The notes under the pieces were generated by a model. That model was not told the origin of the DNA, did not search any database, and worked only from the letters and a program-made list of their open reading frames with translations. Shown in pieces: positions 3,776 through 3,898 of a DNA stretch of 21,799 bases (position 1 is the stretch's first letter; the number at the start of each line of letters is the position of its first letter). The DNA comes from a virus, in the UHGV virus genome UHGV-1662791. One strand, 5' to 3'. A program made the position numbers and the translations under genes.

Positions 3776-3898
3776 TTAAAAAGATAGAGGCGAGCCGGTC
3801 AGGTAGAAATGAATCAGGCTCAAAGTGAAGCGGAAAAGGTCTGTGGTACAAGCTGATGCAGCCATAATTACAGCCTGATGATTTGTGGAATGAAACAT
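3776..3898 (-). CDS. Hypothetical 40-aa peptide with hydrophobic C-terminal half
   Basis: Hand-translated minus-strand ORF MFHSTNHQAVIMAASACTTDLFRFTLSLIHFYLTGSPLSF; preceded by AGGAGG with a 6-nt spacer (plus-strand complement at 3905-3910). Lies in the otherwise ORF-free region between bor and the HNH gene. Speculative. Confidence 0.25.
   Translation of the reverse strand: MFHSTNHQAVIMAASACTTDLFRFTLSLIHFYLTGSPLSF

Follow-up and report, generated by a model that had tools for sequence, protein, structure and literature searches.

A cassette of ~340 bp in the late region of an E. coli SfIV/HK97-like prophage carries a conserved ORF of 40 codons behind two sequences that mimic the promoters of lytic-phage RNA polymerases. 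The prophage region was analysed as a single stretch of 21,799 nucleotides (UHGV-1662791; hereafter, the window). We propose that the ORF encodes a small peptide payload gated by the RNA polymerase of an invading phage and probably toxic to the membrane, so that its expression would abort the infection; comparative data give this reading about an even chance. The existence of the ORF as a conserved coding gene is confirmed by comparison among prophages, and the two promoter mimics, together with the lack of a recognisable sigma-70 promoter, are the decisive context, which an earlier sequence-only reading of this DNA did not contain.

Genomic context and limits of the cassette

The cassette lies in a 525-bp gap between bor/iss and HNH (Table 1). 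As had been described from the sequence, this gap holds no long ORF, and its minus strand encodes a 40-aa product, MFHSTNHQAVIMAASACTTDLFRFTLSLIHFYLTGSPLSF, with AGGAGG 6 nt before the ATG. The stretch homologous to lambda comprises bor and ~110 nt upstream of it and ends near 3710, while 3709-4125 is 85% identical to the o-spanin-HNH interval of Shigella phage SfIV. In loci that lack the cassette, homology to the window ends at about 3777-3791, and 3779-4117 is wholly missing from many prophages whose HNH is 95-97% identical. In one of them (L081), an intact LysC, with a different C-terminal tail and no promoter cores, ends 40 nt before HNH (97% identical); in two other loci (L221 and L237), divergence is found right of about 4117. 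The cassette is an indel with its left edge at the stop codon of the ORF, and, as in morons, it separates two genes that are neighbours in close relatives (L081 and similar loci, where LysC abuts HNH). It is present in 626 of 5,426 complete E. coli genomes (11.5%). Its carriers are SfIV/HK97-like temperate phages, in which it has the lysis genes on one side and the HNH/terminase genes on the other and runs opposite to the late operon.

Table 1. Coordinates in the window of the cassette, its predicted elements and the neighbouring genes
Feature	Position	Strand	Remarks
Endolysin	2336-2812	+	
Rz	2809-3270	+	
Rz1	3029-3211	+	
bor/iss	3302-3595	-	
Remnant of a LysC-type o-spanin C-terminus	3715-3828	+	PF23793, alignment; antisense to ORF codons 24-40
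Whole cassette, ~340 bp, indel relative to relatives without it	3776-4117	-	Homology breaks and cassette-less loci
40-aa ORF, candidate payload peptide	3776-3898	-	ATG 3898-3896, TAA 3778-3776
Anti-SD GCCUCU inside codons 36-38	3786-3791	-	Predicted RNAalifold helix with SD 3909-3904
Shine-Dalgarno (SD) AGGAGG	3905-3910	-	Separated from the ATG by TTCAAC (6 nt)
Predicted 5' stem-loop of the P2 transcript, GAAGG-N8-CCUUC	3933-3950	-	Prediction; 5 bp
P2, SP6-class promoter mimic ATTTACTGGACACTATAGAAGGA, -17 to +6	3945-3967	-	Predicted +1 at 3950
Palindrome CTTGTCCAAC-AC-GTTGGACAAG	3979-4000		Between P1 and P2; on the minus strand, a hairpin with a T-rich tail after it
P1, T7-class (Berlinvirus-type) promoter mimic CAATACAACTCACTAATGGAGAG	4002-4024	-	Predicted +1 at 4007
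HNH	4121-4471	+	
Small terminase	4588-5082	+	
Large terminase	5096-6829	+	

Some additional observations were made on the surroundings of the cassette. The bor homologue is labelled iss (increased serum survival) in RefSeq, and the ~110 nt upstream of it are common to lambda and to 653 plasmid places in E. coli genomes, which are probably iss loci of the ColV type; a transcript made by a phage polymerase from the cassette would run on into this gene. On the other side, the HNH frame is open upstream to 4022 (plus strand) and includes an ATG at 4076 (MNGGGYVGGFFIGVH-MPSR...); the better SD (GGAG) belongs to the start that is annotated, at 4121. The 95-nt cassette stretch involved (4022-4120, plus strand) has a diversity (pi) of 0.116. 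Finally, a tandem duplication of 286 bp is found at 2213-2500 of L100 and also in L165, L168, L173, L176, L208, L219 and L244. The duplicated unit consists of the leader/SD region, P2, the palindrome, P1 and the first ~63 nt of HNH, and in its second copy the ORF start is missing and the promoter is degraded (GACAGTATAGG...).

Conservation of the small ORF

Comparative evidence (conservation, selection and context), and not the SD, is what confirms the ORF as real. It had been argued that a perfect SD would be unlikely by chance; however, AGGAGG-N4-9-ATG occurs three times in the window, with 0.9 expected, and at least three times in 11 of 100 shuffles. The expectation that the reading frame would be conserved across related prophages, on the other hand, was borne out. 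Among 125 copies (45 haplotypes) collected from IMG/VR, GenBank and RefSeq, the start codon, the spacer, the length of 40 codons and the position of the stop are invariant, and the SD is kept save for one variant, AGGAAG in L150/L175, which comes with a compensatory change at 3789. Rare variants seen in single contigs (P0002, P0005 and P0016) have a frameshifted or read-through C-terminus.

The two halves of the ORF have evolved in different ways. In codons 21-40 there are eight synonymous and three nonsynonymous changes, seven of the ten variable sites are third codon positions and pi is 0.024, as against 0.12-0.15 in the flanks; judging from this pattern, these codons are under purifying selection. 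Codons 1-20 have accumulated 26 nonsynonymous changes and three synonymous ones, and the comparison of the window with SfIV gives 15 versus two in codons 2-20 (3839-3895, minus strand), with a dN/dS of about 2.6. This N-terminal excess could reflect relaxed constraint or diversifying selection. The C-terminal half had been described as hydrophobic, which holds only in a moderate degree (best 17-aa Kyte-Doolittle window, 1.22; the GRAVY of the peptide is 0.61).

The 3' half of the ORF overlaps, in antisense, the remains of a LysC o-spanin gene, a feature that was also missing from the sequence-only reading. The PF23793 profile of Pfam matches it with E=0.001 and 19.4 bits, below the cutoff of 27 and over profile positions 35-68 only, versus 3e-15 and 56 bits for the intact SfIVp53; for these reasons, we regard plus-strand 3715-3828 as a remnant and not as a gene. 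Within 3688-3828 (plus strand), which has a junction near 3710, this remnant is what stayed behind after the original lysis genes had given way to a lambda-like R-Rz-Rz1-bor cassette. Conservation of the C-terminal half as a by-product of LysC coding was considered and rejected: 10 of the 12 changes in the overlap are nonsynonymous for LysC, while eight of the 12 are synonymous for the ORF, and the LysC tail is different in relatives without the cassette. Consequently, the constraint acts in the minus frame, and the pattern indicates that the LysC tail of cassette-bearing phages is mere antisense of the ORF.

The ORF has largely escaped annotation. Nothing is annotated in the bor-HNH gap of the RefSeq (PGAP) record that was examined in detail, and no annotated feature lies over the ORF among the 12 matches listed for 3776-4035 in E. 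coli genomes. A few GenBank phage records name it 'hypothetical' or 'DUF4347'; for instance, in ON470607.1, ON470621.1 and ON470600.1, 'protein of unknown function DUF4347' is the name given to a feature over the bor-HNH match that seems to be the 40-aa ORF. This label looks like an annotation artefact, as the Pfam scan of the peptide gave no match at E<=10. Searches of Pfam, PHROG and PADLOC with the window peptide and five Klebsiella peptides returned no meaningful match, and the homologues found by tblastn and in a search of 5.8 billion proteins were restricted to close relatives and to a Klebsiella family with the same C-terminus.

Two promoter mimics upstream of the ORF

P2 is, by sequence, a perfect consensus promoter for the RNA polymerase of K1-5/K1E (Vectrevirus). 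Its 21-mer (3967 to 3947) is identical in 21 of 21 positions to four perfect promoter copies in K1-5 and equals promoters of K1E and other Vectrevirus phages. When compared with the 23-bp SP6-class consensus (-17 to +6, ATTTA-NNN-GACACTATAGAAG), it differs at -12 to -10 only, and this consensus was found in none of 100 shuffles at up to three mismatches. Besides matching the consensus, the element has the distribution of an SP6-class (Molineuxvirinae/Vectrevirus) promoter in phage genomes, being multi-copy, on one strand and intergenic. Thus, K1-5 has 13 matches to it at up to four mismatches, all on the plus strand; Vectrevirus records have it at three to six places each; and, in IMG/VR, its core is present once per prophage contig and repeated in SP6-like genomes of ~44 kb.

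Among prophages, P2 is nearly fixed at -17 to -13 (pi 0.015) and hypervariable at the specificity triplet, -12 to -10 (pi 0.299 in E. coli and Shigella). The triplet is CTG, the K1-5 type, in 76 copies, CTT in 11 and GGT in eight, the latter being the SP6 type, which is found in SfIV together with a T at -3. Several prophage variants are changed at -5, -3 or -2, which may make the promoter weaker.

P1, a T7-class (Studiervirinae/Berlinvirus) mimic, is on the same strand, with its +1 site 57 nt from that of P2. Nineteen nucleotides of it (-17 to +2) are identical to a sequence of the Berlinvirus phages 285P, S523, BSP161, FE44 and others, which in FE44 (at 12530) is annotated as a 'phage-specific promoter', an annotation that is itself a PHIRE prediction. 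Over all 23 positions, identity is 19/23 to this annotated FE44 promoter and 16/23 to the FE44 (Berlinvirus) consensus, and, because of the latter figure, P1 is a weaker call than P2. The match was seen in none of 100 shuffles and P1 varies little (pi 0.038, versus 0.12-0.17 in the flanks). A search for a third mimic in 4020-4125 found none.

Sites with the sigma-70 consensus were sought on both strands of 3250-4500, and none was found where 2.1 were expected. Additionally, no RNA-polymerase gene is annotated in the complete genome of the cassette-bearing SfIV (54 genes), the window itself being late region only. The locus, in the prophage late region, would thereby match tandem T7-supergroup promoters without a cognate single-subunit polymerase gene.

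The palindrome, the leader and predicted RNA structures

The palindrome between P1 and P2 is also shared with lytic phages. In its 18-bp form, TGTCCAAC-NN-GTTGGACA, it is repeated in SP6-like lytic genomes, both after genes and inside coding regions, where it might serve as a polymerase terminator, an RNA stabiliser or a binding site: K1-5 (L314) has it at 9568, and the Klebsiella phage F5M1D (L409) at 1797, 7164, 8368, 9791, 11010 and 32915. The copy at 7164, one of these six, directly abuts a promoter, as in the cassette. Both arms change together in L096 and L103, and we rejected the idea that it is a protein operator, as this co-variation makes a structure more likely. The hairpin looks like a terminator and could block transcripts from P1. 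It is the only terminator-like hairpin seen and stands upstream of the ORF, none being predicted between the ORF and bor/iss.

The predicted P2 transcript starts at 3950 and has a leader of 52 nt. The leader (pi 0.034) and the SD-ATG block (pi 0.015) vary little in E. coli and Shigella, and the pairs of the 5' stem-loop stay as G-U where A changes to G. A second predicted structure is a long-range helix between the SD and an anti-SD near the end of the ORF, in which the pair 3906:3789 changes from G-C to A-U in two haplotypes (AGGAGG to AGGAAG, with CCT to CTT at 3789). This single event of covariation is only suggestive of a translational restraint like that of hok; according to the model, sequestration of the SD could limit translation, above all on fast phage-polymerase transcripts. 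The Rfam scan of 3200-4700 at E<=10 returned eukaryotic snoRNA/miRNA noise only.

Counterparts in Klebsiella prophages

Klebsiella prophages have SD-led ORFs of 36-38 aa at the same position, which belong to at least five sequence families; they follow AAGGAGG or AAAGGAG, and the same palindrome is found some 150 nt upstream of them. One of these families, found in 298 contigs, shares the C-terminus LSLIHFYLTGSPLSF with the E. coli peptide, and the last 15 codons of the E. coli ORF and of Kp1 differ by four synonymous and no nonsynonymous changes. Between Kp3 and Kp4, pS is 0.77 and pN 0.26, and between Kp2 and Kp5, dN/dS is 0.44; by these measures, the Klebsiella families are under purifying selection. 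Their products are TM-like, with best 17-aa windows of 1.58-2.45 versus 1.22 in the E. coli peptide. Consequently, the earlier suggestion of a small membrane peptide is a good fit for the Klebsiella positional equivalents but only a moderate one for the E. coli peptide itself.

In Klebsiella, the order of the elements is a T7/K11-like promoter (for instance, AATTAGGGCCCACTATAGAGACC or TTAATGCGACTCACTATAGGAGACC), the palindrome, AATAGTGGCGAGTATAGAAC, TTTAATGTTACACGAGTAGGAAC and the small ORF. The first of these two additional sequences, AATAGTGGCGAGTATAGAAC, has 11 copies in F5M1D, which belongs to the Klebsiella Molineuxvirinae, all of them intergenic and on the plus strand. The second resembles a Drulisvirus motif that is present three times in KpV41, once immediately after the polymerase gene. 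As judged by these resemblances, the Klebsiella mimics are matched to their host and come from two or three subfamilies of the Autographiviridae. Such a stack of mimics, matched to the host genus, is not one captured phage fragment, and it argues for selection. Taken over every version of the cassette, the ORF is the only element in common.

Other elements were seen in the Klebsiella-type cassettes. A further palindrome, TTGTCTCTTATAAGAGACAA, lies upstream (at about 2840-3000 in L315-L320; also in L322, L325, L330, L338, L341, L344 and L354), and a possible fourth, SP6-like element, ATAAGTTACACAATAGAAAT, is found just before the SD; the latter has no match in F5M1D or KpV41.

Proposed function and alternative explanations

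The following mechanism is suggested by the order of the elements in the E. coli cassette, which reads, from 5' to 3', P1, the hairpin shared with SP6-like phages, P2, the 52-nt leader, AGGAGG and the ORF. In a lysogen, the cassette would be silent until infection, because no host promoter is recognisable in it and the prophage encodes no single-subunit polymerase. A lytic phage of the Autographiviridae would make its own polymerase on infection, and this enzyme would transcribe the ORF; the trigger would be Vectrevirus or Berlinvirus phages in E. coli, and Przondovirus-like, Molineuxvirinae or Drulisvirus phages in Klebsiella. We infer that the peptide aborts the infection, either as a small toxin active on the membrane or as a factor that inhibits the phage, and that its mRNA is further restrained by SD/anti-SD pairing. 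This mechanism is favoured by the promoter matches, the parallel order of elements in Klebsiella, the coding signal, the TM-like Klebsiella peptides, the indel and its prevalence and the lack of a polymerase gene in SfIV, as well as by a P2 triplet that is very diverse beside a P1, P2 core, leader, SD and C-terminal ORF half that vary little. Against it speak the moderate hydrophobicity of the E. coli peptide and the unconstrained evolution of its N-terminal half, the rare altered C-termini, the 16/23 fit of P1 to the Berlinvirus consensus, the changed P2 variants, the terminator-like hairpin, the predicted sequestration of the SD and the lack of a match in PADLOC, PHROG or Pfam. A more ambitious formulation, which we hold with somewhat less than even confidence, is that of a 'polymerase trap' in the temperate phages of E. 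coli, Shigella and Klebsiella. Mimics for every Autographiviridae subfamily that attacks the host would drive a membrane toxin of 36-40 aa, the orthogonal polymerase of the invader would execute the infected cell, and the specificity triplet would co-evolve with the local lytic phages.

Other explanations have to be weighed against a peptide payload. The functional product of the invader polymerase could be the RNA itself, acting as a decoy, a polymerase sink or an antisense RNA, with an incidental ORF. The most conserved blocks do include the non-coding promoters, leader and hairpin, the last being a cis-element common to SP6-like phages; the N-terminal half of the ORF is unconstrained; and the SD may be sequestered. 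However, the frame, the length and the start codon are kept in 125 of 125 copies, the C-terminal half shows a synonymous bias, pN is well below pS in the Klebsiella families, and it is hard to explain without translation why unrelated peptides of the same size, hydrophobic and with a strong SD, are found at the same position. A single chromosomal copy of a promoter would also be a poor polymerase sink. We consider an RNA-only function unlikely, if still deserving of some weight. A slightly smaller probability is assigned to a hijack like those of satellites, in which the invader polymerase would turn on downstream prophage genes (the ORF and then bor/iss) for the benefit of the element and not as a toxin. 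It would agree with the position of bor/iss, downstream on the same strand and with no predicted terminator in between, and a similar idea is said to have been put forward by Chen and Schneider for islands of tandem T7-like promoters. By contrast, in SfIV and in the Klebsiella prophages the small ORF is the sole downstream gene on the same strand, what lies beyond it being antisense into the lysis cassette, and only the ORF is common to all contexts.

The sequence-only reading had named a moron product among its candidates, and an ordinary moron, or else a toxin-antitoxin locus of type I, could be transcribed in lysogens by the host polymerase. The peptide is indeed small and moderately hydrophobic, its SD is strong and possibly sequestered as in hok-like mRNAs, and the site, adjoining bor, is a moron hot-spot. 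What stands of that reading is the moron-like insertion itself, which is missing where LysC and HNH adjoin in close relatives. An ordinary lysogenic-conversion moron expressed by the host polymerase is unlikely because the region has exact phage-polymerase promoter matches upstream of the ORF and no sigma-70 consensus promoter on either strand. Moreover, neither a promoter for an antisense RNA nor an Rfam family was detected, both being weak tests, and the peptide is not homologous to known families of type I toxins, so that, on the whole, we find this explanation distinctly improbable. Least probable of all, in our opinion, is a non-functional relic, that is, a scrap of lytic-phage DNA captured by recombination and carrying a chance ORF. 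The palindrome-plus-promoter layout does exist in a lytic phage (F5M1D at 7164), and an SD and an ATG alone are within chance. Nevertheless, a relic would have to account for tandem promoters of different subfamilies that are matched to the host genus, for promoters, SD and C-terminal half that have kept a low diversity while the flanks diverged, for purifying selection on the ORFs, and for the prevalence of the cassette, both in complete E. coli genomes and in the 298 Klebsiella contigs.

Implications of the proposed payload gated by the invader

If expression of the peptide by the polymerase of the invader is confirmed, the cassette would be a defence without a sensor protein, in which recognition is delegated, through promoter mimicry, to the RNA polymerase of the attacker, and whose effector is a single tiny peptide, unannotated in the RefSeq records inspected. 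It would also provide a function for the tandem T7-like promoter islands noticed in 2006, for which no explanation was found in the full-text literature. Resistance to Vectrevirus, Berlinvirus, Przondovirus and Drulisvirus phages is predicted to depend on lysogeny, and therapy against E. coli K1 and Klebsiella makes wide use of these phages. Additionally, the cassette would be a natural and very compact phage-inducible kill switch. These predictions are easy to test, because about one in nine complete E. coli genomes carries the cassette.

Comparison with known systems

In 2006, Chen and Schneider reportedly described T7-like promoters grouped in twos or threes within prophage-like islands of enterobacteria that have no polymerase gene, and they are said to have proposed that the downstream phage-related genes are transcribed from them. 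By this description, the likeness lies in the tandem T7-supergroup promoters, the prophage DNA and the absence of a cognate polymerase gene, and the cassette very probably belongs to the same phenomenon. Tandem promoters are, thus, already known; what appears to be new is the conserved, SD-led ORF of 36-40 codons as their immediate payload, with signs of selection at the protein level. The analysis also adds phage-group assignments for the promoters (Vectrevirus, Berlinvirus, Klebsiella Molineuxvirinae and Drulisvirus), the palindrome that they share with lytic phages and a figure for the prevalence. A full-text literature search found no experimental study of such a cassette.

Type I toxins (Hok, TisB, Ldr, Ibs, ShoB and ZorO) are likewise very small peptides with a strong SD and a predicted long-range helix that sequesters it. 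Their hydrophobic character is approached by the TM-like Klebsiella products and only moderately by the E. coli peptide; by analogy, membrane damage may also be expected here. The cassette peptide differs from them in that it shows no sequence homology and that no antisense RNA or host promoter was detected; while type I toxins are controlled by an antitoxin RNA, control of the cassette would consist in the orthogonality of its promoters. The morons of lambdoid and HK97 phages, such as lambda bor and HK97 gp15, are similar as small autonomous insertions between conserved late genes, absent from close relatives, and the cassette also adjoins bor. However, a moron is expressed in the lysogen and brings its sigma-70 promoter and terminator with it, whereas the cassette has foreign phage-polymerase promoters and no sigma-70 match.

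The closest functional parallels may be resident elements that respond to an incoming phage. Lactococcus AbiD1 is induced by a phage product, genes of P4, PICI and PLE are switched on by activators of the helper phage, and engineered phage-inducible suicide cassettes exist. The cassette would share with all of these the logic of an element that stays silent until the transcription machinery of the invader acts. AbiD1, P4, PICI and PLE depend on phage transcription factors that work with the host polymerase; the cassette described here, by contrast, would be triggered by the single-subunit polymerase of the invader itself, acting on mimicked promoters.
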